A stretch of DNA of 64,000 nt from Psammoneis japonica (Eukaryota), in NCBI GenBank assembly GCA_008632985.1, contig QPGO01000047.1, forward strand, positions 62,001 to 126,000, read 5' to 3'. A program made the position numbers and the translations under genes. The notes beneath the pieces were generated by a model. That model saw only the letters and a program-made list of their open reading frames with translations. It did not search any database and was not told the DNA's origin. Every line of letters begins with the position of its first letter. Position 1 is the first letter of the stretch. Positions 1 to 61,600 of this stretch are shown piece after piece.

Positions 1-1969
1 GCTGGGTGCTTGCACACTGTCCTGACAAGAAGAGCTTCAGTCTCTGTTTGCCCACTTGCAAAAAAGTGGCAAGCACCATGACAGCTGCTCTCACTGCATC
101 AATTTGCTGCAATTTTCTTTTTGTTGAACTCTCAAAGCACCTGTGCTGTTGAGATGATTGCTGCTGCCTCATTTTGTGTGTTGGCTGCAGGTGCATTTTG
201 GCATGGCTGGGGGAAGGGGGGGGAGACATTGTTGCTTCACCTCTGAGAAGTGAGAAGGCTTGGGCATCATCATCAAATGGTGCAGCAGCCACAAACCCAA
301 CTGCACAGCATGCACCAGCTGATGATTGGCCATGTGATGGGGCAGCACCTCTTGTCTGCAGGGGCACAGGGTTCACAAAGAATGAGCTGCATCACTGTGT
401 TGGCTGTCTGTGCCCAAATGCACCATGGCTTGAAATGAGCATGACAGCATGGAGCACTGCAGGCCAGAGTTTTTGTGCTGCACAAAGTTTTGTGCACATG
501 TCAGCTGGCTCTGCAATCAAAGCAGACAGAGCACAGCAAGATGACAGTGCATGCAGCATGGCCTGACTCCACAGCAAGCATTTGCAGCACACAGCAGAGG
601 AGTGTGGTGCATGCTGCAGGTGTGTGCTGTGTGTGTGTGCAAGTGTGGCAGGGCCACACTCATGTGTGCACAAGTGTGGGGCAGTGGTGCTGGGCCTGAT
701 GGCAGGGAACAGCAACAATGTTGTGCCAAGACAGTTCCCCTGATTTTTCTTCCTGCTGACAACATGAAAGCAATGGAGCAGCCATTGCAGCACAAGGCAA
801 TGGCACAGCACATGACACATGCTGTGGGGTGTCATCCGACCCAGCAACAAATGGCAAACCTTCCAGACCTGACATGTGGGACACTCTCCATGTGACATTG
901 GCCAGCAGATTCTGCATGTGCAAGCTCCACAGTTCAAACATCAGTTGACAAACCAACAGACTTGTTTTTGAAATTTAAACAAACAAGCAAAGTTTGCAGC
1001 ACAGCTGCACCTCTTCACCACACTGAAGTTGTCAAACAGATCACCCAACAACTGCAATCTAAAGTGTCACAGAACACCACCAAAGTTGCACAAAAATGCA
1101 CGTGCACATGGCGCATCTTAAAAAAACACAAACATCCTTGAAACTCAGCAGCAGCATGTGATGTCCTCCCACCTGCAGCTGTTGCTTGGGCAACCAGAGC
1201 CATTGCCATTTTTTGCAAAAAAGGCACAATGACAGACCTCCAATGAAACAAAAATGGAGGAGCCACAACTCTTCTGCTGGAGCACATCAGCTTTGCTGGC
1301 AGATTGCTGGCAGGTGGAGCCTCAGCCAGCCACCAGTTCAGCAGCAGATTTGACTTGCTCCTGCAGGATCACAACTCAAAATTATGAGCTGGAGTTTGGC
1401 ACCTGCTCACATGCATTGATGCTGGTGCTGGTTTGACAGGCTGAAAAAGCTGGTGTGTGTGATTGTTGACAAGCCCTTGAAAGAAATGTCTGCAACAAAA
1501 ATTTTGCAGTCTTTGGCCCTCCATCTGTGAGGACAGCAGCACAAACTCATCAGCTGCAAGGTCCAAATGTCATCAAATCAAGTTGGTGTGGTGGTGGGCA
1601 CATCTGCCACATCACAGAGCCTGCCACAGCACATGCTGTTCAGGCTGACAACTGGCAAACACTGGCAATGATTTGTGTCACATGACTTCCATGTGGCAGA
1701 AGCCATGCAATCTAAAAGCGCACATTGTGCAAGCATGAATGACTCACACTCATTCTGCTGAGCAGTTTTGTGTTGTCTGCATGTTGCATGGCCTCCTGCT
1801 GACACAAGCAAGAAGAGGAGCTGGGGTCTGTTTGCCTCCTGTGTGCAGAAGTGTGGCAAGGACCATGGTGACAACTGAGTCTGACTGCCCTGATTTTCTT
1901 GCAGCATTTTCTTTGTGTTGAACTTGCAATGCTTGCATTGTCAATGGTTGTTGCTGTTGCTGCTGTTGC

Positions 1970-2378
1970 ACTGGGGGGCTTGGGGATGACAAGATGCGAC
2001 GAGGAGCATTGTTGGGGGCTCTTCTGCTGTGACAAAAATTTGTCGTGCCTTTTTTTGTCACTTCTTGGCATGGCTTTGCAGGGGTGCATGAGAAGAGATG
2101 TGGCTCTCACCTCAGAGAAGGCATGGGTTTCACAGTCAAATGGCTGGGCAGCCAAGCCCAGAGCCACCCGGCAGGAACTGGTTGATCTGTGTGGTGGCAG
2201 CGCCTCCTGGGGCAGGGGATGATGCCCAAAGAGTGTGCTCTGCCACTGCTGGTTGCACCCAAAGCTTTTGGATGACTCGCACAATGCCATTTTGGCCATC
2301 TGCTCTTGTTGTCAACACACACAAATTGTGGCTGCTTTCTTCAAGCTGAGAGCGACGCGAGGAGCGACGACGTGGCAC
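1970..2378 (-). pseudogene. Degenerate protein-coding fragment, family not recognised
   Basis: The frame of ORF 2136-2378 continues protein-like (TQINQFLPGGSGLGCPAI*L*NPCLL*GESHISSHAPLQ) through TGA stops that could derive from CGA, and contains no Tyr. Confidence 0.35.
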
Positions 2379-2991
2379 CCCCCAGAGCCTCTGCTCTGTG
2401 GGTTAGCTCTAGACTCTAGAAGAGCAGACTTGGGAGGTGAGTGCAGGAAGGCAAAACAAAAGTTTTGTGGGAGAGGAATGAGGATTTTGGATGAGAAAAT
2501 CATGGGGCTCAGAGAGGAGTTTCGATGACGATTGCATTGCCACTCACTTCCATGCTTTGGCAGCACTTTCTACTCTTGCCCCACCCCTGCCAGCAATGGC
2601 GCATTTGTTTTGATTTTGGAAATGGAGCCCACGGCGGGAACGGAGACTTTGGCTTTCTAGACAATGAAGGGCACCATGGGTTCTCATTCAAGGCATGACA
2701 TGACAAGGGAAGGGTTCCTTCTGCTGCTCACATGCTGTCCAAGTCTTGTGGGATGCGTGATGCAACAGGAGCTGACAAAGCTTCCCATTTCTCTCATCAC
2801 ATTGGCATTTCTGCAGATGCTGTGGAACCACCCCAATTCCTGTTTGTCACAGGACACAGGCACCATCCAAACAAACACCCATCTTGCGCTTTTTGGCATG
2901 AGCGCTCTCGTTCTCAAGCAGTTGTCACCCTCGGAAGTCATGACCAAACTTCACTGTTCTGCTGTAAGAAGACACACCAAGTTTCGAAGTT

Positions 2992-5900
2992 TCACTCGGC
3001 TGCTGCTTCATGTTGGCTGCAGCACTTTTTCCCCGCCCGAGGCACTTTCTTGCAGCGAGCCCCGTTCTTTGTGGTCCCAGCGCAAGTTTCCTTCTTCGTC
3101 ATGATGGACGTGGGAGTGGGATTGTCGGAAGTCTTCTGATTGGAAGCTGGAGGAGCCACGGCTAGATCCTTCTGGGTTGAAGAAGCTCCACCGACCACCT
3201 TTGCCGACAGAGTGGGGGGCATTGGAGTTACATCGTCGGTTGCCTCGACATCCACATCAACAGCCGTCTTGCGACCCCATGATGAACCCATGAGTCGGTT
3301 CTTCCACGAACCACCACCGAGCTTTTTGGCGGATGGAGCAGGAGATGCAAGGGGCTCGGGACGCGACGAGTCCGACGGAGCATGGACTTCTTCTGCTAAA
3401 CGAAAGAGGGTCATTGGATGTGACAACATCAAAGAAGAGGATGCATGCTGGCGAGGCTTGCGCACCTTGTCATTGCCAGCAGCCTCCTTCTTGGTCGGCA
3501 CGTCACATGGCGTCACAGGATCCTCCGACAAAGCGTCGAACCAAACAGGAGTGGGTGACTGGCGTGTCCCATTGTTGCTTCCAGCAGGAGCATCCGCCTT
3601 GATTGATGCCGCGGCATCCTTTGAAATGGGCGTGTCGCGCGCCGTGGGACAATCCTTTGGCCCACTGGTGCCTTTTGCACCATGCTCATTTCGGTTGAAG
3701 AGTTCGTCCAAGACCTTTGGGTTGAGTTCAAAAAATTAAAAAGGGCAAGTGGATTTGGCAAACAATGCAAGCGCAAGCAGGACAATGTACAGCCATGCAG
3801 CAGCTTTTGCACCTCAACCCCGGGGGCGTCCTTGGCATCATCCTTGGGCTTCCCAATGGTGGCAATGTTTGCAACCCCACGTGCATTCCAGTTTGCCTTG
3901 GACGAGTCGTCCGAGACCCACAAAGACAGCATGATCAAAGCGGTGAATGGCTCAGATTGCAGCGTGAGACAATTCAGAAACCAGAGCCAAAATCAGCATG
4001 ACAAAAGCAGTTTGCATGCCTCAGCGACCATCGGCGGCGTGCCGTCCTTGGCGTCAACCTTGGGCCCACCAATGCCGGCAACGTTTGCAACCCCACATGC
4101 ATTCCGGTTTTCCTTGGATGAGTTTTCCGAGACCTTCTATAAAGATGGCACAAAGAGGTGAACAGTTCAGGTTCCAGCATGACAACACACAAACCAGAGC
4201 CAACATCATTGCGAGAAAGTGCTTTGCATGCCTTGTCGACGACCGGCGGCGAGTCGTTGGCGGCGTCATCCTTGGGCTTGCCAATGCCAGCACCGTTTGC
4301 AACCCCGCGCACATTCCGGTTTGCCTTGGACGAGTTTTCCGAGACCTTCTATAAAGACAGCACAATCAAAGTGGTGAATGGTTCAGGTTCCAGAACAACA
4401 ACACACAAGCCAGAGTCAAAATCAGAACGACAAAAGCACTTTGCACACCCAAGTGACGATCGGCGGTGCGCCGTGCGAGGCATCATCCTTGGGCCCACCA
4501 ACACCGGTGCCTCTTGCAACCCCATGCGCCTTCTGGTTTGGGCTGAAGTCAGAAAACATCTCCCATGCAAATGGAGAGAAGGACAAAAGGAAAAAGAGGT
4601 GAACAGATCTGACAACAAGAGGCGATGTCATGCAAGAATGGATCTGATGATGCATTGCGCGAGACAGAGTAAAAAGACGAAACACCACTGCATGCACACC
4701 TTGACAGAAGAGTCATCGGTTTGGTTGATCCGGAACAAAACCCAGTGCGCTTTCCGGCTCGACTTGGACGAGTTGTCTGAGACCCACAGACAACATGACC
4801 AAAGCAGTGAACAGTTCAGACCACAGCATGATGACACACAAGCCAGAGCCAAAACAGTGCGATGTGAGTGGTTTACATGCCTCAGCGACGATCGGCGGTG
4901 TGCCGTGCGAGGCGTCATCCTTGGCTCTGCCAGCACCGGTGCCTCTTGCAACCTGTGAAGACAGCACAACCAAAGCGGTGAATGGTTCTGAATGCAGCAC
5001 AACAACAAAAAAGCAAGATCCAAAATCATTGCAAGAAAAGCACTTTTGCATGCCTCAGCAACGATCGGCGGCGAGTCACAGGCGGCGTCATCCTTGGGCC
5101 TGCCGGCACCGGTGCCTCTTGCACCATGCTCCATCTGATTTGGGTTGGAGTCATCAAGCACACCTCAGCAACGATCGGCGGCGAGTCGCAGGCGACGTCA
5201 TCCTTGGGCCTGCCGGTGCCGGTTGCAGCATGCATGCAGACAAAAGGTCATTTTTGTCACGCCCTTTGTGACATTTAAAGGCTGCAACACGTCGCCGTGA
5301 CACATTGACTCTTGTCAGCAGCTGTGTGTTGCACGGTGCCTCTCGCACCATGCTCCGTCTGATTTGGGTTGGAGTCATCAAACATCTCCCACACCGATAG
5401 AGAGAAGGAAAAAAGGTAAAAAGAGGCCAGTGGATCTGACAACAAGATGCGACATTGTGCGAGAATGGATCTGACGATGCAATGCGCGAGACAAAGCAAA
5501 AACAGGAAACACCAATGCATGCTGCGCACCTCAACAGAAGAGTCTTCGGTCTGCTTGTCTCGGAACAAAACTTTGCTTGAAGAAAAAGCCTTGGGAGTGT
5601 TGAAAGCAGAGGCGCGACTGCAAGGCCTGTGGGTCGATTTGCGCACAGACGCGTTGACGCAGTTTTCGATCTCCTCCGCGGTGAGCTGACCTGTTTTGAG
5701 TTTTTCAGTGTTTTCCAGGGTCACCTTGACCACATCCTTGAGAGTGGGCGACGTGGAACCACCATTTTCCACCAATGTGTTGGTGATGTGCTGATTCCTG
5801 TTGTCACGATTGTGCTGATTCTGAACAAAATTGATGTCGACAGCACCAGGTTTGATTGCATCGTGCCGGTGGCAGGTCGGACAGCCAATTCCGTGCCAGG

Positions 5901-6143
5901 ATTCAGAAGACGAGGTCGCGGCCCGTTTTGACCTTCGGTGAACAGTTCACACCATTTCTGGCAAAACATCCGCCGAGTGTTGCTGTCATTGAGCAAGTCG
6001 AGGTGCGGATAAACTTGCTTCAACTCGGCATCAAAACGATCGATCGCACATGCTCCGGCGAGCTTCTTGATCTCCGGATCCATTTCGGCTCTTTCAATCA
6101 TGGGCTTGAAGAAGGCATCGTAGGCGCTGAAGATAGGAGCCAT
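2992..6143 (-). pseudogene. Disrupted hypothetical gene with a C-terminal CxxxTxxGxRC...CxxH putative zinc-binding motif, interrupted by an internal repeat array
   Basis: ORFs 5721-6218, 5275-5775 and 2992-3711 read as pieces of one protein (ATG 6143, frameshift near 5850). The C-terminus is CAGTTKNGARCKKVPRAGKKCCSQH, where this motif normally has YCxxH. The EHGA(K/R)GT motif occurs in both the last piece and the repeats. Confidence 0.5.
3790..5570. repeat. Degenerate tandem array of ~210-215 bp units plus a duplicated ~200 bp block (about 4540-4740 and 5360-5570)
   Basis: gcaacccc..gcattcc.gttt.ccttgga.gag recurs at 3871, 4087 and 4299. The gatcggcggcg...catccttggg motif recurs to about 5210. 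Confidence 0.85.
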
Positions 6144-12751: not shown

Positions 12752-12959
12752 GACAAGCCAAGCAGGGATTCAAGGTATAAAGCGAGAACAGAACGACGAA
12801 ACAAGCAATCAATGCAACAACGAGCAATCAGTCTACTTCTGCATCTGCATGATGGATGTACAGCTGCGACGACGCACCCCGGTATTTTTGAATAAGGAAA
12901 TTATGCATTCGACATAGAAATTAGTCTACTTTTTTCACACCGGTACGGAACACACAGCC

Positions 12960-15880
12960 GTTGACAAACGATGACACAAGCGTCCGTTGAATCCACAACC
13001 TTTGATGATCAAAATCTCTTTGGCATGTGCCAAAAAATGAAAAACCTGTGTCAGCTGCATCTCTTGCGGACCGCACGCTTTGCTGTTGGTTTCCTGTTGA
13101 GAGCTCTTCAGAACTTGACACAGAACAATGGCGCGGCATTGTGTCATGTCAAAAGTGTGTTGGCGATGTCAAACAGATTAAATGCAAAAAGAAATCTTGG
13201 TGTTGCACCTGGGTTCTTGCGTGAGCCAAGCCCAAATGTGATCACCTGATGGCCGCACAGCTGTGGGGCACTGCCAGAGAGAGGTCCACCTGCACACCTG
13301 ACCCACGTCAACCGATGTTGAGTGGTTTCATGTGATGTCATGATGGTCAGTGGGGGGTGGCAAAGATCAGCAACTTTTTGCCAACCTCCATGATGAGAAG
13401 CGAAAATGCCTCACATTGTTGCATCATGTTTGGTGCTCTTCTTGGTGAAACATGCCTTGCCAGATGTCGTTGTGACAGCTTGGCCAACTTTTTGCCATGG
13501 CTTGCGCAAGTCCTGAGGAGGCTGCTGGCTGGCATGACAGCACTTTGGACAATGGACATTGCTGTCACCATGGACTCACCAGATCTCTCTGCTTGCAACA
13601 CCTTTTGCACTTCTTTGCTGGCCGTTGCTGCTGCCAGCACTCTGCAAGCCAGTGGCAGCAGCGCATCATTGCGCAAGAGGAGCCCTGGCTTGACGTCGCC
13701 ACATTTGCAAATGAGACAAGCACCTTTGTTGAGTCTCCCAGAGCAGCACTCAAGTTGGCTGTCAAATGAAGACAACCAGCAGAGAATCATGTTGCTGAGA
13801 AGCTCTCAACTCACTCCTCTGGAGTCTTGACATGATGTGAGCAACTGCACCTTTGGGGAGGCAGCACACTCTCAAGGTGGTGTTGTCGTGGCAGCTCTCA
13901 TGCAGATGTCATGCTCAAGTGCTTGAGCTGCAGCACAAGTTGGAAAAAGAGAAAAGAAAAAGAACAGGCAATGGTTGTGACAAGCACAGCAGGGCACAGC
14001 CACCCACCCTCCTGCCAAAGAGGGTGCTGCTTGGCTCAACAAGCACACACAGCTTTTGTCAGTCAACAGAAGAAAATGTGGCAAAGCTGCTCAACATTGT
14101 CAATGTCATTGTGGTCATTTTCTGAAACATGAGCTGTGTGGCTGCCAATTTGAAGCTCTTGGCTCACTTGCCATCTGCCACAGATGTGCTGATCGCCTGT
14201 CTCCATGATGCAGGAGAAGTGCCATGTGCTGGCTGAGAGAACAGACTGGCAACAACCTGCGCATTTTCTGGAGGCAAAGACAGCATGGCAATCACCAACA
14301 GCCATGTGGCAATCTTGCTCTTCACGCCTCTTGCAGACCTGTTTTTTTTTAAATGATGTCCAGAAACTGCCTTCATTTGCAATCAATGCTGGGCCAATTG
14401 TCTTGATGTTGACAGAGGCTGTGCACCATGTGATTTCAATCAAGCATCATTGCCGGCAGCATGCCGAGTGACAAACTTCACTTTCAACTGCCAACATGCA
14501 TGCCAAAGGCACAGCCCAGCCAGGCAAGCAGCATCATCTCTCAGACAATTTTCAATTGGAGCTGAAGACCATGGTGCTGGCACCAGAAGACCACCAGAAG
14601 ATGCAGGCTTGTTTGGGCCTCAGCTGCACACCAGCGGTGGTGCAAAATGCATTTTGCACATGCTCGTCAATCCAGCTGCCCTGCCAGATTGCAAAAATCT
14701 GTGATGCATGCAATGTCCTGTGGCACGCCATCATGGTCTAGAAATCAATTTCAAGGCTGCACTGGAAACCACTCAAGGTTCAATGTGGGGTTCAGGATCA
14801 ATCCAACGAATTCTGCCACAGTGGCTGCAGCCTCTCTTGTCGGGCATTTGGGACCCTCACAAGATGCCTTGTGCAACAAGTCAGAAATTTCAAAGTCATT
14901 TGCTCAAAATGTGCAGCAGGAGTTGCCAACCCAGGTGCAGCTCTGGACTGTGGAGATGTGTTCAAACTGGCTTGCAACTTCGATGATGTCAAGGGTCAAG
15001 GGCATGCCATTTGAGATCCTTGGTGTGTGAAAAGGCATCAGAGCAGATGGGGCACAACACAGCCTTGAATGATTGGGTCAGCACCTCAAACTTTTTTTGT
15101 GAAACTGAAATGTTTGCGATGAGAAAGAGGATGAGTTGGGATTGATCTCAAAAGGGTTGAAAACAAGGGAAATCGAAGTCGCACATTCCAAAAATTGGCT
15201 CACATCGCTGCAAAATTTGTCAACACTTCAGCCATTGGCTCAAACATGGTCTCAAGTGTGTGGTTGGCTTGGCATGAAATTATGTGGAGAAGAGTGGTTC
15301 ATGAGAAATCTTGACTGCACACCAGATGCAGCAGAGCATGCTTCCCTGCCGTCTCATCAAACTGGCACCCGCTCCACTGAGAGCAACAGCCTCTTCCACA
15401 CAATGCATTTTCCACAGGGATGCAATGTAAAGTGGCACATCTCCATTTGTGTTGAGAACATCTGTGGGTTGAACTGCCAAGTGCAGTGCCTTCACCTCCT
15501 GGCCAAGACAGACAAGAAAGAAGACATCAAACTCTTTGCCCACATTGGCGCTCCTCTGTGGTGAGGAAAAGTGATGTGCGAGGCTGTGCTTTTCAAGGTT
15601 CACACCTGCTCCACCATCAATGCAAGCTTTGAGTTCTGCCTTTTTCCCACAATTGGCTTGCCAGAGAAGAGTTTTGGGGGACAGCACCCTCCATGGCAAG
15701 CCAAGCAGATTCAAGAAGGCAAAGAGCAAGAACAGAGTGAGACGCAACAAACAACCGACGGAAATTGCAAAAAAACGAGCACTCAGTCTGCTCTTCTCCA
15801 GTGCCGGCAGCACTGATCCAACATGCACAGCGCCATTGTAGCACTCAACATCTTGCAAATTGGAAAATTGCGGAAAAAAA
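12960..15880. other. TpA- and CpG-depleted domain B
   Basis: Very few TA over about 2.9 kb and a TG/CA excess, flanked by normal-composition DNA. Confidence 0.85.
15280..15700 (-). pseudogene. Degenerate ankyrin gene paralogous to 11851-12751
   Basis: AELKACIDGGAGVNLEK..ANVGK..GQEVKALHLAV..DVLNTNGDVPLYIAS parallels AEVEACLDDRVDVNGEK..ADVGK..GEGVTALHVVV..DVFDIHGETPLHKAS. Confidence 0.7.
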
Positions 15881-16141
15881 GAAAAAATCAGAGGAGGTCG
15901 AAAGAAATCGAAATGGATAGAAAGGACCGCGCGTCCGCGCGACAGTCCAGCCGGTTGTCATGTCCGACGCGCCAATTTTGGCCACTGGGCTTCACTTCCA
16001 AAAATACGTATGTAGAATTATACGTCGAATACCGTACAGTGGCAACAGTCGCCTTCGCGTGATCCGCGCACGCGCTCAGATTTTTGTCGCCGCCGTTCCG
16101 CATTGCAAACTTCTGCCTCCAGATTCCAGATGCATGCCACC

Positions 16142-22799: not shown

Positions 22800-23617
22800 C
22801 CAACTCGCAGCATTTCTACTGAAAATCTACGCATCCCATCCGTTCAGAGTCACAGTTGAAAACGCAGGGAGTCGCTTCTGCCCACGATTACCGCTTGGTC
22901 GTGATGTGTCACGCATTCCCGTTTCATCCTACCAGCAATCTGTAGCATCGAACGCCCAATGCAGTCATCAGAACCAGGGCCACCGTGTGGGCGAAACATC
23001 ATGGATATTGTGGTATTCTTCCCACTCTAATGTCCTTTGAGGGTCATTTTGACTAATGATAGCGTCGTGTACTGTACAGAGCTTTGTGGTGTCACATGTA
23101 CGTCCAACAGACATCCTCCACCATTATGTTATGCCAGGCATAAATAATGGATAGACCAGGACCATGCATTTTTCGGAAGGTAAGACTCTTAGAAGTCATT
23201 TTAAATGTAGAAACGCCGTTGTCTTGGCCAACATTATGACCGTCATACGCACATCATGACCTTTTTGTGACTCACAATTCAGTCATTAGAATCTACGACA
23301 GATACGTGACATTTGTACGATAACGTGGGTGTTGGATGGCTGCTTTCCGGTGCTCACGAACTTGCCGGGCACGATCAACAATTTGGGTGCGGATGGGCAT
23401 TGCATTAGCAACGGAAATGAGAATCGCCACCTCACATGAATGACCTGTCGGTGATCACAAAGCAGTCATTGGTCCCTGCGACAGACGCGTCACGATGAGT
23501 GGAACAAAGGGACATTCTTGCTTTTTTCCCAAAAAGAAAATCGCTCACAATTCTCTCACAATTCAGAGAAACAACTTGGGTCGCTTGGTCTTGCTTCAAC
23601 TTCCTGACACAAAGGCA

Positions 23618-26274: not shown

Positions 26275-26519
26275 TTGCGCTGCATGTGCTGCAGTGGCAG
26301 AAATGAAAGTGAGGATGCTTTTAAAGAGATGCTGTCAAGTTCTTCAACTCTCATCCTTGCCCAAATGACATTTTCTGGGATTGATGGTGCCAACTGTCAA
26401 TCAACTTATGTGCGAGCACCCCACTCAGAGGAATTGATCATTTTTCATTGCTTTCTTTGCCACTTTGTGTTGCGCGGGGCTTGCCCGCTCCAGGAATGGT
26501 CAATCCCTTGACAACATCG

Positions 26520-33102: not shown

Positions 33103-33178
33103 TAAGAGCAGTTCTTGAATACTGTACGAATATGCACTGTATGCTTTCTGCGTTCCATAATAAGATCCGAATGAACCA

Positions 33179-37200: not shown

Positions 37201-37290
37201 GTTGTTGTGGTGGCGAAAACCAGTGTTGAACTGCATGCCAGCATGTTCTCACTCCGGTCTCTCTCTTTCTCCTTGCCTTGGATTGCGTCC
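34240..37290. other. TpA-depleted domain D, preceded by an 18-nt G run (34205-34222)
   Basis: TA is scarce. CpG is depleted mostly in 36300-36950. Contains unidentified decayed coding-like sequence at about 34950-35500. Confidence 0.8.
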
Positions 37291-37576
37291 GAAAAATATG
37301 TGATGGATACAACAACTCTCTTTTGCCACTCAATGTGTAGAAAAACGAGAAAGGAACGTTCCAGCGTTGGGAATGGCATGCGTGCGACGTGCGTGCCTTT
37401 GAACTGGTTGCCGGCGACCAGCCGTCGTTCGTCTGCTCATCGCGCGCCACATCTTGACGCGAATTTGTTGACAACACGAAATGAACACCAAAACACAACA
37501 CGCAACACGCAAAACAGAGAGCACAACACCAAAACACGAAACTTAAAACAACGACAACCAAAGCAGAACACACAAC

Positions 37577-42557: not shown

Positions 42558-43484
42558 ATGATGTCCTCTGTCCTCTTTATGAATGCCGTGATCAACGTCA
42601 GCCACTGTGACTTGACCACAGCTGTGATTCAACGCAAGAGCACGAGCGATTGGCTTCGTTTTGCTCTTTGGGTCGGCCATTGCGCCTTGCTACAAGATCT
42701 CGATGTTGTTTCCATCACAATGTTCTCGACGTTTATCTATGGATTGTGCCAGGGGTTGTTGGGGCTCACGGAGGACTTTTTGCATGTCAAGCAGCAGTGG
42801 TTTCCGAACGTCACTGTCAAATCGATTTGCTCCTCCATCATCGGGTCTCCCATCTGGAGCCAACTCCATTTCGTTGCCATCAAGTGCAAATCAATCTTAT
42901 TGAAGTGTGTGGGACTCGTCATTGGCATGTCCAAGGAATGCATCAAGCGTGTTGACTTTGCGAGCGCAGCAGCCGTCTTGAAGCGCTTCGATTTGACTGC
43001 TGCGGTTGTCGTGTTTCACATCGGCATGGCTTTCAAGAATTTTGACATCAGTGGCCTCATGGGATTTCTCCTCCGTCTCATGTTGGTGTTGGTGCTGGCC
43101 TGTCTCATTCGCATGCACGTTGCGGGATTGTTTTTACCATCAACCGAGGACGATCTGTCGAGCCATCGCGACGACCGTGTCAAGAAGCCTTGGAAGGAGC
43201 CAACGTCCAAATTCAAGAAGGGACAGTGCGTGCATTGTCGCCATTCAAACAAGACGTGCAGGGCAAAGATTTTAAGGGTCCATTTTGATGATGATCTTGA
43301 CCCGTTCTACGATGTGAAATTGGGCGACGGATGCGAGAAGCAGATGACCGAGGACCACCTTTCGGACCAGCTCGGCTCAGGTCACATTCAGGTTTTTATT
43401 GACATCTTTGACGACGATCCGGATTGCAACATGTTGCAAGGTGCTCAATGGGGGGAAGGGGATGTCGTCAGTGCAATCTTGTGA
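42558..43484 (+). pseudogene. Hypothetical membrane protein with a small C-terminal SH3/Tudor-like motif, TpA-eroded
   Basis: Open 308-aa frame containing FKKGQCVHCRHSNKTCRAKILRVHFDDDLDPFYDVKLGDGCEKQ, with Cys/His where aromatic residues would be expected. Confidence 0.5.
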
Positions 43485-45574
43485 CGATTGTTCCATCAAG
43501 ATGTTCGATGGGGGAGGATTGCCGAGTGTCATGTGTGGATGCGGTGTGACGAGTTTGCGTGTTGAATTCTTTGTTCAACTTGGGCTCTCTTTTTTCCGAA
43601 AAAAAGGCCTTTGCTGTTGAGATCAGAGGGCAACCATCTTTGTGTTGTTGAATGAGAGTTTGGTTGATTGCGTTGGGTCTTGAATTCAAGCTCGTGTTGG
43701 ACACACATTTAATTTGAGCTGATTCCGAAGCATGTCATTGTTTCCGAACAGAGCATGTGAACGAGAGAATGAGAGATTCACGCGGCACTCAAACCCAAAT
43801 TCATGCCGGTGTGAAGGTGGTGCCATCTTTTTCGAAAGCAGAGGGGCGGCTGTTAAAAAATCGAGAAAGGAAAGTTGAAGTCGAGGAAACTGTTCAACAC
43901 GAGAAACTCTTGCTCCCTCTGCAGGAGACGCTTTGCCATTCTAATTCAGTTGGGCAATCTATTTTGGTTTCATTCAATCAAGATGAGCAGAGTCTTGTAC
44001 AAAACAAACATCAAACAAACACAAAATTTTGGCCAACACTTCTCCGTGTCGTCGCAAACTAGTTTTAATTGCACTTTTCGTCGTTCGTGGCACAGCTTGC
44101 ATTCGCAATCAATCGATCGAAGGCTGAGGACGTCACGCCGGCGGACCAGCATGGCACCCTTTTTAGACTGCAACAGTTGCGGACTTGCCTGTTGTTCAAC
44201 ACTGATTGACAGCAGCCACTCTCCACTGCTAGTTGTCAAGAACAAAGACCAACCAAACTGTTCAGTGGCTCTTGCTGCAGTCAGGCTAAGTAGATCCATT
44301 CCACCCAGATGTCCCCTCAGATCGAAACCACAAGAGAGCAAAAGCCTCAACACTTAAAACATTTCGTGTGGAAGCTGGAAAGAGCAAACTTGTTGTGAAA
44401 CTCGAGGCATCAAGAAGGACATTTTCAATGCACTTTGCACAAGAATCGCCTTTGAAGCGAGAATTGCAGCAGTTTCTGGTTGATCCATTACCCAGCGAGC
44501 AAGGTCGTGGGTCTTTTCTATCACTGTTTGGGCCTGCTTTATGTTTTCTCCTTTGCCGCGGTAGGCCAACAGGGCAAAGATCCTTGAAAAGATGTCGCCA
44601 AGCATGCATCCTCCGCCTTCTGTTCTGATGCATCTTGGAATGAGTGTGCACGGCGGATGGACATGTTTTTTTCTGCATCGAGCATGTCCGCCATGAAGAG
44701 ACGTCTCTTTCCAAAGCACATTGGAGGGCCTTGCCCACTGATGCAGAAACGTGCGAATGCCAAGAGGGCAAAGGGCTCTCCCAAGCAACAATGGCCGTGC
44801 TGGCCTTCCAATCAAAAAAGAAATCATCTCCTTCCTCTACGTTGTCGTCATGCTTCATGGCAAGTGCAAAGGCCAAGCGAATCAGATTTGAGTCTCGTCG
44901 CTGAGCCACCGTGTTGAACCGCAGTTTACCACACCAACTGTCCATCAACAATTTAAAGTTAGAAACATCGAAAGACATCAGAACTCTTTCTCGCGTTCCC
45001 ACACCAAAGGCGCTTCGGGTCCCGCCAACTTGAGCGCTTCCTCCCTTCCACAGTCAACTTCTCCTTCAATCTCCTCCACACCTTTCCCAGATGCAATGAG
45101 TCGCCCGATTTCCCCCTTGACATTGTCCACTGCGACTTTCGCACTTCCCTGACACGATCAAGGCGAGCTAGAAGTGGAGCGAAAACGTCCACTTTCCCTG
45201 CAGCAGCTGGCTCCTCGGTGTTGGGTTGAAGAGCAAGCCCAGTTGGCCAAAGGGAGGAGCCCTGATCTGCTTCTGTTGCAAATGATCGACATTCGCTACA
45301 AAATGCTCCCATGGTTGAAAACGCAGCAACAACATCGACCTGACCACACTCAATGACGGCAAACATCTTGTCGCGGATCCAACCGATCAGCGCGGTTTCC
45401 ATGATTTTATTGGCATTGCGAAGATGCCACTTGCCAAAGCAGTTTGCAGGATCCACCGAAAACAACAATGGCGGAGCATCCCGAGACGACGGATGTGTCG
45501 AGCAATTTAAAAAAAAAAAACGCTTCTTTCCGGAAATGGCTTCAAAGGCCTCCACATCAATTTCCTCCGCACTG

Positions 45575-46065
45575 CATCTGAGCATTCACCCAAGATCCAG
45601 AGACAAACGTGTGTTATGTTGCCAGAAGAACTGTCTTTGATGAAACCCAACAAATTGGGCGAGATGGATCCTTGCAGTGCAGGGTGCTGTTCGACAATGG
45701 CTCTGACAAAAAGAGCAACCTGCACAGAACCATCCGCGGCCAAAAAGTCCATGAGAGCAAAAACAACCGACTCGGCAAAATTGGGAAATCGCACAGCGCA
45801 TCTGTGAACGGCCCAAATCAGAATGTTCCGGTGGGCCATGCCCTTGGCTTCCACCATGGTAGAGTCCTGCTCTTGAGCAGTCTCGGCAACCTCGCGATTG
45901 AGCGTCGAAACCAAAATCAGCAACGTCCATGGCAACATCGAGAACCTTCTCGCAAAAATCAGCGCTGCAGGAACTGAGCGTGTGAAGAATGCCCATTGGC
46001 AGCTGCAAGATCTTGTAATGACGAGTCTTGAGGTCTTCCAACCGTTCACGAACAATGAGCTTGAC
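45575..46065 (-). pseudogene. COPB1: Internal fragment of coatomer beta subunit (beta-COP)
   Basis: VKLIVRERLEDLKTRH..ILHTLSS..KVLDVAMD and AHRNILIWAVHRCAVRFPNFAESVVFALMDFL..FVRAIVEQHPAL..LWILGECS match beta-COP (YR..LI.A.H.CA..FP, E.YP.L, LWILGEYS). Confidence 0.85.
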
Positions 46066-46857
46066 AAGTTTGTGTGGGTGGAATGGCAATGGGTGCCGAA
46101 AAAAGCGACACTGGAACACAAGCTGCCTCGCACCGGTGGGACACGGCAGCAGACGTGCTGGAAAGCATTGGAAACAAGATCTGGACAAAATCGTGACTTT
46201 TGGGTAGGATCACGACGACACAGCTTGGACCTTGACGAGAGGCCTCCACTGGACATTGTCCGCAAATCCATTGAGTTGGCAGACAAAATTGAGTTCTGAA
46301 CTTGGCAAACAACTCGACTTGATTTTGCATCATTCACTTGGTAGTGTTGCGTGTTGTTGTTGTTGCAGACATGGTACTTTCTTGCTTTGCTTGTAATGCC
46401 AATAAACTTGAAGAAGAACGCTCGTTGCTTGCGACGTGTGGGTGTTCCTTGGATGGATGCGGCGTCATGTTTGGCGCCAAGGTTTGTTGGAGATGTGATG
46501 CTGTTGTGGTGGCGGCGCTGCTACAGTATACTTCATCCAGCTTGTGGCCCGTCACGGACGGTGTAGTGGCTGCAGACCCCAAAAGGCAAGCGAAGTCACG
46601 GTCGGGCTGTCATCATGGCGAGAAGAAAATCAATCGCGCTGCATTCGGTCTCAATTGTCATCATGGCGAGAAGCAAATCAACTTTGTTGAAATGTACCAA
46701 TACAGATTCTTATATCTATATTGAAATTCCAAAATCACGTAGAATTGTACTGAAAAAAGTGCTGCCGACGGACGAAGGCAGGACACGAGTGCTCTCGCCA
46801 CTCGCACTCGCGCTCTTACCGATAGAGCGCGAGTGGGCGAGAGACTCAGAAAGCGGA

Positions 46858-53480: not shown

Positions 53481-53829
53481 GTACAGCGGTAATGTCGTTC
53501 ATCCCTCCTCTCACAAGATCAGGCTGCAAACTATTCCTTCAAAGCTGCATCCGATCCAACAACTATCACCTATCACAATCTTCGCCGAAGTATTGTCTTG
53601 CGCAAAATAAAAAAATTAAAAAGATAGGGACTATAACTACGGTAACTCCAAACTTCGCATAAAATAAAAGCTCGTCCGTCGCTCGTGTCTTCCTTTGATG
53701 TTTGCACCCGCCGCATCCACCCGCCCAGACTACACACCTCTCTCTACTCCAGTGGCCACCCCGAGTGCCGGTGCTGTAGCTAACTCTACCCCAGAGAGAA
53801 TAGAGGATGCAGGCAGCTAGATTGCCCAG

Positions 53830-56330
53830 CACACTGAGAGGAGAGACCCCGTTGAGTGAGATGCGAAAAACAGTTTGTGCGCTCTCTTCTGTCTTGTGGA
53901 AATCAGAGCAGCAGGTGACAACGAGAGGTGAAAGCGCTGTGCATGACCATGTCATGTTCGATCTCTCCATGCACTGCATGAAATTGCTTGCAAGCTTCAC
54001 TGCATTGGCAGGAGCTTCCAATGCAATGAACTCAAGGAAAAAGCATCTGAGAACAAGAGAAGGACCTCCTCCTGCACCAATGATGTGCTGTTGTCCAAGC
54101 CGACAAGCTGCTTGAAACAAAGCCAACTCACTCTGATTCTCCACATTGCCCAGCAAGAAAATGCATGCATCCTTGTGCAAGCAACACCCAAAAATGAGCA
54201 CAAGCAGCTTGAGTTCCAACAACCCAAGCCCCGCCATTGTGAGCAGCACTGCCAACACAAGCCCCCTTGACAATTGAAAGGACACGCCAGTCAGAATGCT
54301 GCAACCCATCTTTTGAGCCCAAAGATGAGCTTAAAATGTCTTGAGATGGACTGGCAACCCAAGTCATGAATGAATGAAAACAATGCTTTGCATGGCATGG
54401 CAGCACGTGTGTGTTCCATCAACATGAGATTGGCGCACACACACTCACACAACAAGATTGTGTCAAGGCAGATGGGTTGGTGAATGTCTTGAGATGGTGG
54501 GTTGTCAATCTGAACCATGGATGAGCAAACAATGCTTTGCATGGCATGCACATTTGTGCTCTGCAAACACTGGTGTGCACATTGAGCTTCCACCCAGATG
54601 CAGTGTTTTTGCATGAATGACCACAGTGTGTTCTGGGAGACAAGAATGGAGTCCATCATGGGTGGGAACCTGACCAAGCCCAACTGCTTTGAGGTGCACA
54701 AACAGCACATCAAGAGCAGCCAAAGATGCCAAGAACAGAGCCTCTGCTGGGAGTGCAGGTCCTCAGTGCAGGCAGGTGCCACACCAGCTGCTGCAGATGG
54801 AAGGGGGCAGCCAAAGAGGCAGAAGAAGCCCCAGGAGAAGGAGCATGCAGTCAGAGCTGGCCATTGTTCCAAGAATGAGTGAGAGGGCTTGATCAATGAC
54901 AAAGAGACCCAAGCAGGAAAGCAGCAGCTTTGAAGCCAGGGTGAGGCAGAGCACACTGGTGCAAGGTCAGCATGGCTGTTGCCACTGCTGGCAAGGACAA
55001 AATGAAGAGACGAGAACATGGTTGTTGTTGAACCACTCCTTCTGTGAAAAACTTTTGTCATGTGGTGGCCTTCAAGTTGCACAGTGTGAAAACCAAAAAG
55101 CCTTCTTCTCATTGTGGGCCCATTGTGTGAGATGCCCCACACTTTTGCAAGCAGACAACCCAGCCCATCAATGGTGCATCATCGTGGGTTTGTGTTGGAA
55201 GGCAAGCAACAATGAAGCTGTCCTCACAGCTGCCACCATCAAAAATGCACCCAAGTGTGTCAAGATGGCTTTCACATGTGGCTTGTGGAGTTGACAACAA
55301 AGCTTTGTCATGCAAGGTGGGCTTGAGCAAGGCCTGCTGGCTGCCATGGGGGTGAAGGTGTCCAAATGCAAAGCTGTTGCTGGTGTTGAAGTGTTCATTT
55401 TTGTTCTCACACAACTTGCCCCACATTCTGAAAGCACAAAACCAAATCTTGCTCATGCAAACTGAGATCAAAAAGATGAGAAATCAAAGAAAGGAGAGTC
55501 TGAAAAGGCCTTTGCTTGCAGCTGTCCAGTTTTGTAGATGGTCACTTCATGCTCACATTGGTGCCAGCCAAGATTCTGTGGGAAAGGTGCCTGCATGAGC
55601 TTCCTTGTCACTGAGAGCCCCCAACTGTTGTTGCAAGCAACAAAGATTGTTTTGGGCTTTTCTGCAAGAAGAGAGCAGTTGTTTCCTGTTGCAAACCTTC
55701 TTGATGAGCTTTTTAGTGGTGGTGCAAGAAAGTGAGGCTGGAGACAAGAAATCAAAGCAAGTGCAGCAAGGCTTGCAAGTGTTCTGCAACATGAATGTTT
55801 TGGGTGAGCACCCAAGCACTTGCCTGTCCGAGCACCCGCTGAAGATGTTTTGGATGAGCCTCCGAACATCATTGAAACATTGAAAACAAGAAGTCAACAG
55901 AGGAACAGAGCTGTTTGTGTGTGTTGTGAGATTTTTGAGAATTCCATTGACCTTTGCAATGACCCCAAAGATCAGCTGAATTTGAAAGATGTCTTTTCAG
56001 CACCACAAACAATGGCAACACAGACAAAAAGAGGAAGGAGGTGGCAACACATTGCTTTCTGAGAAATGTTGGCCATGTCAATGTCTGAACCCTCAGACAA
56101 GGCAGGCGGCCAACCCTTCCAAATGCTGCAACAGACCACAAAACTTGTTCTCCTCTTTGGCAGCAATGATGTCATCACATGGTGTGCACTCTGTCAACAA
56201 GCAGTGCTGGGATCTTTTTTGTGCTGATCACTTTCTTTGTGCATGTCTCATTCCCTTGAGCAACAATTTTCACATTGAGAGAGGGAACATTGACCATGTC
56301 ATCTGCATGACAGGCTTCATCATTAGATTG
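53830..56330. other. TpA- and CpG-depleted domain F
   Basis: About four TA seen in about 2.5 kb, and CpG nearly absent. Confidence 0.88.
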
Positions 56331-57801: not shown

Positions 57802-58169
57802 AGAATGAAAGGTGTGATGTTGAAGATTATGGTTGTATTACACAAGTCAAGTAAATATCTCTAGTAAGTAGGAGGTTTGGTATTGCGTGGTACCGGTAGC
57901 TCTAGTAGATGAGTAGGTCTCTAGAAGTGTCCTATGGGTGATTCGTTAGCATAAGTTATTGTGTCGCATTGACTGCTCTCGATTTAGGATGCTGAGTACG
58001 AGAATTACGGGTTGCAATAATGAGCTGCACGGAGAATGCAATGGCTATCACAGTGTAGAAGTGGGCGACTACTGCTAGTTGTTGCCTGCGCTCTCTACAG
58101 ACAAACAACATGAATCTTGCGTTTGTTTAAAACATCGCAAACTGTCATAAACTGTGAAGAACACACGAC

Positions 58170-58610
58170 ATTTTGAGCATTCTCGTCAATGCAAAAACCG
58201 TGGCCTGTCATCTCAGAACAGCTCTTGCAAACAGAAAAAGGTTCCAATCAAAACCACAATGATTCCAACAATCAAAAAGTACCTTGCCAACTATAAAGTC
58301 CCTTGAGTTTGAGACAAAAGAGACACCAGCAAGATGAGGGCAATCACAGAGCCCATGCAACAGCCCACCAAATCCAAAACCACGCCCAAGGGCAGATCAT
58401 TGATGGCTAAAAAGGCTGCAACAACCCATGCCAAGAGAGTTGTCAGCATGATGTGAAAGAAAAAAACACTGACTGACATCCACCAACCACCAGGCATCTG
58501 CTGGAAGCAGCAACTTTGACCACACACCACTTGCCACAACTGTGCTGCTTTTCATGGTGGACAGACAAAAGACAGCGATAATTTCTGACTCATGACTTAA
58601 AGAAATGGCA
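58170..58610 (-). pseudogene. Hypermutated duplicate of the 3' end of the amino-acid transporter gene at 63100-63525
   Basis: Colinear nucleotide match, and LGVVLDLVGCCMG occurs in both copies. Confidence 0.92.
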
Positions 58611-61600
58611 CATGACCCTGAGCCACAGTGCTGGTGAAACAGAGCAGATCACCCACCACAACATCACCCAGACAAAGAGCAAAATGTCTTTTGCGTTCCA
58701 TGATTTTTTGCTCTTCTGACGGGGTTCAATGCCTTCCTTGTTGACCAGGGACAGAGGCACATTGCAGGCTGTGTCCTGAGAAAAAGACCATGACTCCTTT
58801 TCATCTTTTGTGACTCCAAGGATGTGATGACCTCCTCTCATTTTTTTGTCCTGTCAAGCCTTCCTCTCCAACCTTGCCTTTTTCCATTGGGCTGAGGTGG
58901 TTGCTCTAAAAACACACCCGCTGTTGCAAGGCATGCACAGATGCCCATCACACATGACACTCTTTCTTGCCACTGCCGGCACAGCGCCAAAGGCAGCAAG
59001 AAAGATTTGACAGCTTTGAGAAACCTCTGTGTGCTGTGTGAGACCCACCACATCCTGCAGCGGTCTTGGCACTGCTCCAAAAAAATGACCAAGCCTGCGT
59101 GTTTGTGTGCAAAGGCAGAGGATCCTTTCAAGCTTGACCCTCTTGCCTTTGTGAGCAATGAAGAGTGCATGGCAGAGCAGGTGGACCAGCCACTTTGCTG
59201 AAATGTCCTGTCAGGTGCTTTCACAATGACGATGCAGGGCACAAGCGGTGTGCCCAACAACCCAACAATCAATGTCAAATTTGTGGCAGGTCAAAGACAA
59301 CATGTTCTCATGGCAAAAGCTTTGTGTGGCAGCTGACCCCTTTTTGTCCAGGCCAGCTTTTGCACCCACTTTTGCATCATTTCCTTCAAGGACTTGCTCC
59401 TGGAGCTGATGGCAGGCATTTTGTGGGCTGCATCATTTGTTGGGAAATGAAGTCCAAAGACCCTGGCCATTCCAAATTTGATGCTTTTGAGCACAGCTCC
59501 TGTGCTGAAACAACCCGCCGAAGAACATCCTTTGTCAATGCCAAAGACAGCTGGGGGGGGGCTTCCCCTCACACATCCCATCAAGGAAGAATGCCCAGCT
59601 GCTGCCTTCCCAGAGAAATGCACTTTTCTGCCTTGGTTTCACGACCGCACCCTCTGCATGTTTTTCCATGTGAGCTCTTGTGCAGATGTCACCTTTCTCC
59701 AATGGTGTGACAACGGCTCTCCTCACATGCCTGTTCTGACCACTTTTTTGCTTCATTGATGTGCCTTCATTTGTTTCATCATCATGAGCAATTCATGCAT
59801 TGGAGTTTGGCCAGCATTGAGCCCTTTTGGTTTGTTTGCTTGTCATTCTTCTCGGCATTTTTCTTTCTCACATGCAAATTTTCCACACAAATGCGAAAGT
59901 CATTTCAGATGGTCAACTTGCTGGACTGTTGGCTTCTCTCTGTCCTCACCTCTCAGGCGTCAACACATCCCCCCTCCACTCATTGTCAATTTAAGTTCCC
60001 TGCTTTTTGTGGCAAGCAATGTTCCACTCTGTTGCAGCTCTCAGAAGCTTCAATTTGAGGCCAACTCAGCATGCTGCACCAGCCTTTTTCCCATGTGCCA
60101 ACAACTCTGCACAAGTTTGAGCACATGCTCTGCACGTCTGAAAAGTCATTTTGGATGAACAACCCACCAAGCTGTTGACTGTGCTGCTCTTTGTCCATGC
60201 CTCTTGGCAGGTGTGAACAACTTCCCTTGCATCTGCTGTTGGCTTGAGCCATCTGCATCATGTGGCAAACAACCCCCCATCATTGCTGATCCCAGAAGTT
60301 TGAGTTTGGGGCCAGCTCAATGTGGGTCAGTGTTTGCTCCATGCCCTGCTCTTTCTCACATCAAAGCTTTTCCAGCAGGCGGCCCACTTTGCCTTTGCAG
60401 CTGGGTGCAGCCCCAAGAAGAAAACCCAGTTACAGCATGAGGGCATTGAGCTCTTTGACTTTGATGTCTTGTTCCAATGGTCCTGTTTTTGCTGCTGCCA
60501 GCTGTCTCCGTTGGGCACCACAGACTCACGGCATCAATCTTGGCCAATTGTTGCACACTCCTGCTGCGCAGTGTGCTGGGGGTGTGGGTTGGCTTGTGCT
60601 GCTGGCCGGAGTTGCAGGGTGGAAAAGCGCAACAGTGAGCCACTTGGCACCACACTGGCAGCAATCTGCATGCAGCTGAAATGTGCAATGTCCAAGGTTG
60701 GCCGCTCTTGTGCAGTGCCACACCGCGAAATCTGTGGCCGTCGTGGCTGGCACCCCACCCCCGCGCACAATGTCATGCCACAAAAGTTGTGGAAACTCAG
60801 GACCCTGTATCTTGACCTTTTTTCCCACCTCTGAAGGCACACTCTCAGAGCAAGACAGAAAGGATCAAAACAGCCAAAGTGGCTTGGAGCACACAATTGC
60901 TTCAGTTGCAGTCCAGCTGCAGATTTGCGAGCTTTTTTTTAATGAGTGACGCTCACTTTCAAGGAAGAAGCGAGTGCCGCAGATCTTTTCACCGTGCCTT
61001 CATTTTTTCTTTCACCCAAATCGTCAGACAACACAACCCGACACTTTGTCCATTTCACCAGTTGAGCGCGTTTGGTGCAAACAAAGTAGACTGCTCAGTC
61101 AGTGCAATGCCACAACGGGCGGGTGTGGATTTGCTGTGGATTTGCGATTTCATTGTCATGCACGTCTTGTGACTTCTTGCTTCAAGTTGCAGCAGAAGTC
61201 ATGTGGCATTCGCGCGGAAGGGGGGGCTGCCATCACGCTTCTGTTCTGGTGTGGGTTGATGATTTGGAGTGCATGATGAGAAAAGCAGCAGGCACAAGCA
61301 TGGACAATGGCTTGAGACAATGGCTCCTCATTTTTCGATGGACGCTCACTGCGTTGGTTTGACTGTGTGTCTGAGTGCATCAGCAGTTCTTTCATTGACT
61401 GGTGGTGCATGCATTGTTTGCAGGATTGTGAAAGGGAAGAAGATTGACAAGCTGCACCACGCTTGATGCTGGAAATCTCGATCTCAGACATCGTCTTCAC
61501 TCTGGCCGCATTTCTGAGTCCACACATGATGCCGTCAGCGACAGGCATCGTCACCTCCAGGGGAAGCAATGCGTCAGGCTCGGCATCTGCGACGTTTCTT

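Follow-up and report, generated by a model that had tools for sequence, protein, structure and literature searches.

What removes the dinucleotide TA from sharply bounded blocks of a chromosome, and what spares the few copies that remain? The question is raised by a 64,000-nucleotide stretch of Psammoneis japonica (GenBank assembly GCA_008632985.1, contig QPGO01000047.1, positions 62,001 to 126,000 of the forward strand; hereafter the window, numbered from its first base), which represents nuclear DNA from a eukaryote with introns and has 49% GC and open reading frames (ORFs) of up to 787 codons. A two-state hidden Markov model run on TA density over the whole window divided it into seven low-TA domains (28,603 bp) and seven normal domains (35,397 bp). 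We consider it probable that the low-TA domains are nuclear DNA brought close to saturation by a regional A:T-to-G:C transition process that acts at 5′-TA-3′ and whose rate depends on the flanking bases.

The low-TA domains contain 114 TA, where about 1,130 would be expected from neighbouring DNA, and their observed/expected (o/e) ratio for TA lies at 0.02–0.14 (pooled 0.06) against 0.52–0.71 (pooled 0.60) in the normal domains. CpG is reduced in the same domains (o/e 0.12–0.81, against about 1 in normal domains), TG and CA are raised to o/e values of 1.4–2.0 (pooled TG 1.68 and CA 1.66, against 1.21 and 1.15), and other dinucleotides hardly shift (AT 0.85 in low versus 0.93 in normal domains). 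AA in particular is not depleted (1.24 versus 1.14), which does not fit mutagenesis by DNA polymerase eta at WA sites, a misfit that a first reading of this stretch, made from the letters alone (the sequence-only reading), had already pointed out. At the domain edges, it takes only a few bases for TA density to fall from about one in 20–30 bp to about one in 300 bp, and the edges appear to resemble chromatin or insertion boundaries rather than the outcome of diffusion. The domain ends carry no terminal repeats or target duplications of at least 11 bp of any note, and no similarity was found among the low domains. Within them, TG and CA are intermixed, with no strand runs, in six of the seven (runs-test z within ±1.8). 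Since the non-ORF DNA of the normal domains keeps a TA o/e of 0.70 and a CpG o/e of 0.98, the domains are not a by-product of relaxed selection.

The survival of TA depends strongly on its neighbours. We counted all 16 NTAN tetramers, in which 114 TA fall inside the low domains and 1,394 outside, and expressed survival per bp in low relative to normal domains, with 95% confidence intervals (CI) from a block bootstrap. With Y for pyrimidine and R for purine, YTAR makes up 57 of the 114 sites inside (50%) versus 235 of 1,394 outside (17%; Fisher p = 1.2e-14), RTAY makes up 5 of 114 versus 397 of 1,394, and the two remaining contexts, YTAY and RTAR, together account for 52 sites inside and 762 outside. 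Per-bp survival is 0.29 for YTAR (CI 0.21–0.41), 0.083 for YTAY plus RTAR (CI 0.058–0.111) and 0.014 for RTAY (CI 0.003–0.034), and the bootstrap intervals of the three classes do not overlap. The sequence-only reading had described the surviving sites as mostly YTAR, with ATAC, GTAC, ATAT and GTAT nearly absent. The counts bear this out, more strongly than it was first put: every position that it listed is a YTAR site to within 1 nt, the four tetramers occur 1, 2, 1 and 1 times inside versus 101, 131, 80 and 85 times outside, and survival, far from uniform, ranges about 50-fold over tetramers and more than 100-fold over hexamers. The skew is present in all seven domains, so that even domain 5, the least converted, has a single RTAY among its 33 TA, and it is robust to the use of either ORF or non-ORF normal-domain DNA as the reference. 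Inside the domains RTAY:YTAR stands at 5:57, compared with a ratio near 1:1 expected under any plausible composition.

Each TA holds two A's, one per strand, each with its own 3′ neighbours, and we fitted survival by a logistic model on these half-sites. The base at +1 has a strong effect (likelihood-ratio chi2 92, p = 8e-20), the base at +2 one of comparable strength (chi2 62, p = 2e-13), and the base at +3 no significant effect on TA survival in the same model. Relative to A, survival drops about 4–5-fold when +1 is C or T and 1.6-fold when it is G, and 2.6–3.7-fold when +2 is any other base. Specificity beyond the TA dinucleotide, as the sequence-only reading had proposed, is thus evident, but the TAY motif that it derived is not the rule. 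No difference is seen between TAC and TAT, a 3′ G is not preferred, and TAGG, TAGT and like contexts are depleted as strongly as TAY, leaving TA-R-A as the one context that escapes.

Half-sites were then classed by +1 (R or Y) and by +2 (A or not-A, written B). When both strands are of the RA type (TYTARA), survival is 0.90, with 16 sites inside versus about 18 expected (22 outside); when both are of the YB type (VRTAYB), it is 0.005, a loss of 99.5%, with one site inside and 247 outside. Mixed classes fit a product rule over the two strands, and relative hazards derived by hand from the survival table are approximately 1 (RA) : 21 (YA) : 24 (RB) : 50 (YB). With the coarser R/Y classes, the rate ratio of favoured to unfavoured half-sites is 3.1 (CI 2.1–4.6), and independence of the strands predicts a double-hit survival of 0.024, against 0.014 observed. 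Both strands are therefore hit independently, and the rate on a strand is set by the two bases 3′ of the converted A. This dependence is a rate preference and not a requirement: YTAR, which had been taken for a non-target, is itself targeted, with about 70% of its sites lost.

The survivors alone cannot tell a model in which A is converted under the influence of its 3′ flank from a mirror image that reads the 5′ flank, because both predict the same survivors. The polarity was instead assessed in an array of lamin-tail-domain (LTD) repeats in domain 3, at columns where 8–11 of 11 aligned bacterial LTD repeats have Tyr. Where the codon at such a column is preceded by a pyrimidine, it reads TGY in seven cases and CAY in none (binomial p = 0.016), in agreement with the claim that inferred YTAY sites of the array now read YTGY; where it is preceded by a purine, the counts are TGY 2 and CAY 1. 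Less certain columns add two pyrimidine-preceded TGT and one possible CAT, for a total of 9/10 TGY. The array has kept two Tyr codons, both TAC followed by A, compared with 1 of 13 converted codons followed by A (Fisher p = 0.029), and the retained codons occupy conserved Tyr/Phe columns.

A second measure exploits the immune RA half-site: in hexamers TY-XX-NN, with NN other than R-A, low relative to normal domains show changes of –191 for TA, –184 for CG, +278 for TG and +27 for CA. The gain of TG matches the full TA loss plus half of the CpG loss (283), where a 50:50 split would give 187, and the bootstrapped share of the TA loss that goes to TG is 1.0 (CI 0.64–1.44). These data support the view that conversion strikes the A that is not followed on its 3′ side by R-A, in line with the polarity that the sequence-only reading proposed, support that leans mainly on one LTD array and on a balance in which normal domains stand for the ancestral composition. 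Two other counts were of less use. A trinucleotide mass balance against normal domains was ambiguous, with the TGC gain above and the TGT gain below a simple model, and the hexamer test was used in its place. In a tetramer test for strand-coordinated double conversion of TATA, the products TGTG, CACA, TGCA and CATG are fed by too many other sources.

Duplicated DNA within the window allows the changes to be followed in place. A partial copy, 440 bp in length, of the neighbouring amino-acid transporter gene is found at the domain 7 edge, and its paralogue in a normal domain; of the nine TA of the normal copy, eight read TG (3) or CA (5) in the domain 7 copy and none is kept, and 15 of its 20 CG read TG or CA. 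In a control pair with both members in normal domains, 6 of 12 TA and 17 of 26 CG are kept. A further duplicate of about 600 bp (33168–33762 and 51977–52625, about 79% identical, best blocks 88–91%) lies with both copies in normal domains, neither of them converted, and therefore duplication alone does not attract the process; one of these copies overlaps the DUF4336 gene. A match between 12626–12837 and 15560–15792 (66% identical), which overlaps the end of the ankyrin gene, offers one informative TA only. In the degenerate array of 216-bp units in domain 1, a single column reads TATA in two units (4138, 4350), CACA in two (3919, 4785) and TGTG in one (4954), and the surviving TA are therefore relics of an ancestral TATA converted independently on each strand. 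Columns of the same array mix CG, TG and CA freely, direct evidence of independent CpG decay in each copy.

The low-TA sequence is also reproduced in contigs of a DNA sequencing run (X1, depth about 62, possibly the assembly's own sample). Over 19,200 bp, including two low domains, these differ from the window at nine positions, all transitions. Seven of the nine lie in low domains, five of them CpG versus TpG/CpA, and four of the nine are in domain 2. The other two are TpA>CpA differences at 16009 (GTAT) and 16543 (CTAA), to the right of the domain 2 edge. Beside that edge, a PHD-finger ORF (16005–18500), which holds both of these TpA>CpA differences, has a TA o/e of 0.38–0.46, below that of other genes, and it is possible that an advancing conversion front is present here. 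In ORF 16103–18466, compared for signs of a partly converted state, the NTAN classes shift in the predicted direction, though not significantly (p = 0.12).

CpG loss parallels TA loss by domain (o/e 0.12 in the most and 0.81 in the least TA-depleted domain), with CpG going to TG or CA at roughly a third of the TA log-rate. CpG survival shows a mild, ordinary preference for A/T flanks (ACGT 0.37 versus 0.70 for GCGC and CCGG), and among NCG contexts ACG is depleted more than TCG. As far as composition can tell, the pattern bears the signature of methylation-driven decay.

The low domains sit between intact host genes and hold dead DNA: the LTD array, a NUDIX-like remnant, a coatomer fragment and the transporter-gene copy (Table 1). 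The genes of the normal domains encode FtsZ, a SNF2/RING helicase, a UDP-sugar dehydrogenase, RRP36, DUF4336, Yip1, an amino-acid transporter and ankyrin and cytochrome-b5 proteins. The LTD array matches Pfam LTD with E-values of 4e-27 and 5e-29, and its best homologues are 48–51% identical, all named ones being proteins from bacterial metagenome-assembled genomes. The coatomer fragment has His at two positions that are Tyr in an alignment with solved coatomer beta chains (PDB), with codons GCC CAC and ACA CAC. The recognisable targets are thus an array with bacterial relatives, a copy of a host transporter gene and a coatomer fragment, while most of the low-domain DNA is unrecognisable. The low domains contain 192 stop-to-stop ORFs of at least 80 aa, of which 178 were scanned; the remaining 14 all overlap the LTD array, for which a separate scan covered the two main frames. 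The 178 matched only Adaptin_N and the marginal NUDIX; transposon and virus families were absent, as were reverse transcriptase, integrase and any other mobile-element domain. The scanned ORFs contained no intact domain architecture, the LTD, Adaptin_N and marginal NUDIX matches all being remnants. In Pfam family scans of the window ORFs, no deaminase family was matched.

Table 1. Low-TA domains and recognisable elements of the window
Feature	Position	Strand	Description
Low-TA domain 1	1..6120		26 TA; TA o/e 0.07, CpG o/e 0.51; includes the 216-bp tandem array
Low-TA domain 2	12945..16004		7 TA; TA o/e 0.04, CpG o/e 0.33
Low-TA domain 3	23322..29932		22 TA; TA o/e 0.05, CpG o/e 0.42; edges switch in few bases
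Low-TA domain 4	34238..37615		14 TA; TA o/e 0.06, CpG o/e 0.56
Low-TA domain 5	42739..46341		33 TA; TA o/e 0.14, CpG o/e 0.81; lowest conversion of the seven
Low-TA domain 6	53819..56323		3 TA; TA o/e 0.02, CpG o/e 0.12; highest conversion of the seven
Low-TA domain 7	58295..61620		9 TA; TA o/e 0.04, CpG o/e 0.32
Tandem array, degenerate	~3788-5571		216-bp units, 62-82% identical; in domain 1; no protein-family match
LTD array	23684..26271	+	Five degenerate lamin-tail-domain repeats, one TGA stop, one frameshift; Tyr columns now Cys/His
NUDIX-like remnant, marginal	26441..26866	-	Pfam NUDIX E 1.3e-4, 22.4 bits against a cut-off of 21.1; in domain 3
Coatomer beta / Adaptin_N-related fragment	45510..46520	-	Pfam Adaptin_N (E 2.4e-11), match limited to positions 338-446 of the 524 in the profile
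Converted partial transporter copy	58146..58586	-	Left edge of domain 7; 80% identical to 63073-63507
Unconverted paralogue	63073..63507	-	Part of Aa_trans gene 63138-63983, normal domain; Pfam Aa_trans E 2.2e-26

Two features of the sequence itself may be noted here, a run of 16 G at about 34190–34237, immediately to the left of the domain 4 edge, and an assembly gap of 277 N at 41389–41665 in a normal domain.

In the explanation that we favour, the process would hit the A of TA on either strand, turning TA into TG, which is read as CA on the opposite strand. The agent would be a sequence-reading enzyme, most simply a DNA adenine deaminase that converts A to inosine, read as G, and it would be aimed at silenced, probably cytosine-methylated chromatin. 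Its rate would be highest with a 3′ flank of Y followed by not-A, lower and about equal for R with not-A and for Y with A, and lowest for R with A; TYTARA would then persist, and VRTAYB be nearly extinct, because the rate on each strand depends on the 3′ bases of the converted A. From sequence alone, deamination of A is formally equivalent to a T-to-C process that reads the complementary 5′ flank. As a speculative physical rationale, an A stacked on two 3′ purines could be harder to flip out of the helix. We know of no characterised adenine deaminase with the specificity ‘A of T-A unless R-A follows’.

Hypermutation of TpA to TpG or CpA has been described for integrated giant-virus and virophage DNA in Bigelowiella natans (B. 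natans; Mettrop et al., bioRxiv 10.64898/2026.01.13.699255, 2026), and a full-text literature search on TpA hypermutation returned this preprint as its sole match. It reports 231 de novo mutations, measured in mutation-accumulation lines, in one integrated giant virus (nucleocytoplasmic large DNA virus, NCLDV) and one integrated virophage, every one of them at TpA and, with a single exception, A>G or T>C, as well as 124 TpA-depleted, CpA- and TpG-enriched clusters genome-wide, and puts forward an ADAT2-like deaminase as candidate (bioRxiv 10.64898/2026.01.13.699255). Its main text offers no analysis of the flanks, and the words context, trinucleotide, tetranucleotide, flanking and CpG do not occur in it (bioRxiv 10.64898/2026.01.13.699255). 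The window resembles B. natans in that A:T>G:C change is confined to TpA, affects both strands and is strictly regional, with TpA loss accompanied by CpA and TpG gain, and possibly also in that targets are largely non-host or unannotatable DNA. It differs in being near saturation (TA o/e 0.02–0.14, against 0.45 reported for the B. natans NCLDV region), in its nameable targets, which are a bacterial-type LTD array and host gene fragments with no viral domain found among them, and in the co-depletion of CpG. The seven domains here lie within 64 kb, which would be many for a genome with the 124 clusters reported for B. natans, and that genome is given as 45% GC with a mean exon of 159 bp (PMC12730881), against the 49% GC and ORFs to 787 codons of the window. 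The lineage of the window is thus probably a different one.

In ascomycete fungi, repeat-induced point mutation (RIP) likewise represents a transition hypermutation that is regional, targets a dinucleotide, kills genes and is tied to cytosine methylation of the DNA concerned, and here too a member of a duplicate is affected. However, RIP turns CpA into TpA and so raises TpA (PMC2621366), which is the dinucleotide destroyed here. RIP is also triggered by duplication and mutates both copies, whereas one transporter copy is converted and the other is not, the pair at 33168–33762 and 51977–52625 is untouched, and the low domains lack mutual similarity.

Among adenosine deaminases, TadA and ADAT2-ADAT3 carry out the A-to-I deamination proposed here. 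Their tRNA substrates have U immediately 5′ of the target A, and bacterial TadA reads U-A-C-G. The analogy with TadA that the sequence-only reading drew fits in its 5′ part, a 5′ T being required here, and fails in its 3′ part, where TAC equals TAT, C has no special role at +1, and what decides is that R-A does not follow. In most eukaryotic A34 tRNAs, position 35 is a purine, opposite to the preference seen here. ADAR enzymes act on double-stranded RNA (dsRNA) with a 5′ preference of U>A>C>G, tolerate a 5′ A, favour a 3′ G and leave strand-coordinated clusters. The process here shares the A-to-G outcome and the 5′ U/T preference, but a 5′ A is not tolerated, a 3′ G is not favoured and no domain-scale strand-coordinated tracts are present. 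On DNA, the amphioxus BjADAT2 prefers 5′-GAA-3′ for A and 5′-TCG-3′ for C (PMC10354150), unlike the window, in which a 5′ T is obligatory, the AA/GAA class shows no loss and NCG depletion is not greatest at TCG. The context is thus at odds with ADAR and with the activity of amphioxus ADAT2 on DNA, and it does not strictly match TadA.

Several observations weigh against a flank-dependent conversion of A as set out above. Both the mass balance and the survival ratios take today's normal domains as a stand-in for what the low domains were once composed of; absolute TYTARA survival varies with the chosen reference, from 0.46 to 1.67; the survivors are few (114), with some being copies in one tandem array (4138/4350); and newly created TA could account for part of the YTAR excess. 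The hexamer balance is not closed, with 375 lost versus 305 gained, and its CA gain of 27 falls short of the half-share of about 92 expected from CpG decay, reflecting either flank-asymmetric CpG decay or an ancestral CpG content below that of normal domains. Outside the LTD array the evidence for polarity, and with it the earlier claim that it is the A that changes, is mixed: informative single-hit sites in DNA paralogue pairs split 3:3, one C-preceded Tyr position of the coatomer fragment reads CAC (GCC CAC), and all informative polarity sites pooled give 12/17 (p = 0.14). The excess of X1 differences in low domains is not significant (7 in 9,671 bp versus 2 in 9,529 bp, p = 0.18). The decay of CpG may be a separate, slower process; the B. 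natans de novo spectrum is without a CpG component, 210 of 211 mutations in the NCLDV insertion being A>G or T>C (bioRxiv 10.64898/2026.01.13.699255).

With these points in mind, the alternatives closest to our reading concern the flank itself. If the bases 5′ of T-A set susceptibility, with R-T-A favoured, T-Y-T-A immune and YTAY going to YCAY, the survivors would be identical, and the paralogue single-hit sites that include GTAG>GTGG, ATAA>ATGA and TTAC>CCAC agree with it, as does the GCC CAC codon pair at a conserved Tyr of the coatomer fragment. We nevertheless judge this mirror arrangement unlikely, given the uniform TGY reading of the seven pyrimidine-preceded Tyr codons in the LTD array (9/10 with less certain columns) and a TY-TA-NN gain made up of TG and not of CA. 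It is also quite improbable that TA conversion is blind to context and that the YTAR(A) excess came from later C-to-T change at Y-C-A (equivalently T-G-R) or from an ancestor rich in TTTAAA-like words. Such a history could explain why the gain of TY-CA-NN is below expectation, as if some CA had reverted to TA, and would sit well with the reference-dependent survival of TYTARA. It does not account for a TG gain of 278 that fits one-sided conversion (191 + 92) rather than an even split (187), for an RTAY share already down to 1/33 in the least converted domain, or for the 5:57 ratio of RTAY to YTAR, and both the Tyr codons kept at Tyr/Phe columns and the TATA/CACA/TGTG column mark the survivors as relics.

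Other explanations dispense with a process acting on the DNA in place. Hyperediting of retroelement dsRNA by an ADAR-type enzyme, followed by reverse transcription and integration of the edited copies, would give A-to-G changes with a preferred 5′ U/T, a point raised in the Discussion of the B. natans preprint (bioRxiv 10.64898/2026.01.13.699255). It is very unlikely here: the 178 scanned ORFs of the 192 hold no reverse transcriptase, integrase or mobile-element domain, terminal repeats are lacking, TG and CA are interleaved in six of seven domains, a 3′ G brings no advantage and AA is left alone, and both a bacterial-type array and the copy of a neighbouring host gene are affected where they stand. 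Selection rather than mutation, by which TA was purged or TYTARA kept because it served some function (for example as a binding site or in avoiding a nuclease), can point to TYTARA remaining at background level (16 versus about 18 expected). This too we hold to be highly improbable, as Tyr codons at conserved positions have been destroyed, a stop and a frameshift interrupt the LTD array, no intact domain architecture occurs among the scanned low-domain ORFs, and the product rule over the two strands is smooth, as for independent chemical hits. Finally, modified DNA is known to give systematic miscalls on some platforms, and modified bases could have been miscalled as G or T in sequencing or assembly. 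Such an artefact is scarcely credible when independently assembled contigs agree to within nine differences in 19,200 bp at a depth of about 62 (from a run that is possibly the assembly's own sample), and when the changes are coherent with protein homology (Tyr to Cys/His), stops and frameshifts.

A wider reading of flank-dependent conversion, which we put forward tentatively and regard as possible but doubtful, is that the window records a ‘reverse-RIP’ genome defence as in B. natans, in a second marine alga, that saturates all silent intergenic DNA (horizontally acquired genes, pseudogenes and dead duplicates) through an enzyme converting the A of T-A unless R-A follows, and hence that a new DNA-editing family extends across distant protists. 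If true, the flank rule would serve as a fingerprint for the enzyme and for its footprints in other genomes.

The phenomenon of TpA hypermutation is already known, from one species in a 2026 preprint, which is so far the only report of a natural motif-directed A:T-to-G:C process in chromosomal DNA. What appears to be new is the flank rule at hexamer scale, the finding that the strands are hit independently, the CpG decay coupled to TA loss and the non-viral targets; the host lineage is probably also new for the process. If the lineage of the window is other than B. natans, the process is not confined to one species. The quantitative flank rule, with TARA spared, TAYB fastest and the strands independent, is a constraint able to identify the enzyme, and it can be checked on candidate enzymes with short oligonucleotides as well as on existing mutation-accumulation data. 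It is also a sharper footprint detector for other genomes than TpA o/e, and could help in ranking domains by age and in picking out converted genes from their Tyr-to-Cys or Tyr-to-His changes. Base-editing research, moreover, would have an interest in a natural DNA adenine editor with motif specificity.

Searches with the host genes gave some indication of the relatives of the window's lineage. The best public protein matches of two host genes, among 5.8 billion proteins, have 78% and 82% identity, which argues against B. natans, whose proteins are public. In a protein-cluster look-up, Chlorophyta were the commonest group of the clusters returned. The closest public matches to the UDP-sugar dehydrogenase-like gene (21468–22799, minus strand) are metagenomic proteins with 78% identity. 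Where relatives of the DUF4336 protein carry a name, they come from diatoms, Triparma and green algae (Chloropicon), and a metagenome search with this protein returned three short loci of 45–49% identity, of no use for synteny or for finding low-TA domains elsewhere.

A second set of contigs (X2) is transcriptome-like, with spliced joints; the contigs cover parts of normal domains only (20 kb compared) and are not evidence on expression. Within the UDP-sugar dehydrogenase-like gene, at 21783–22170, both X1 and X2 carry an alternative version that differs at 19 of 244 nt and at 12 of 160 nt, mostly by third-position-like transitions, as of a paralogue or divergent allele. The X2 contigs also skip 19512–19596 and about 19678–19889. 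The former interval reads GTAAGT..AG on the minus strand, a canonical intron inside the plus-strand SNF2/RING ORF 18914–20917, and it may belong to a spliced antisense transcript.

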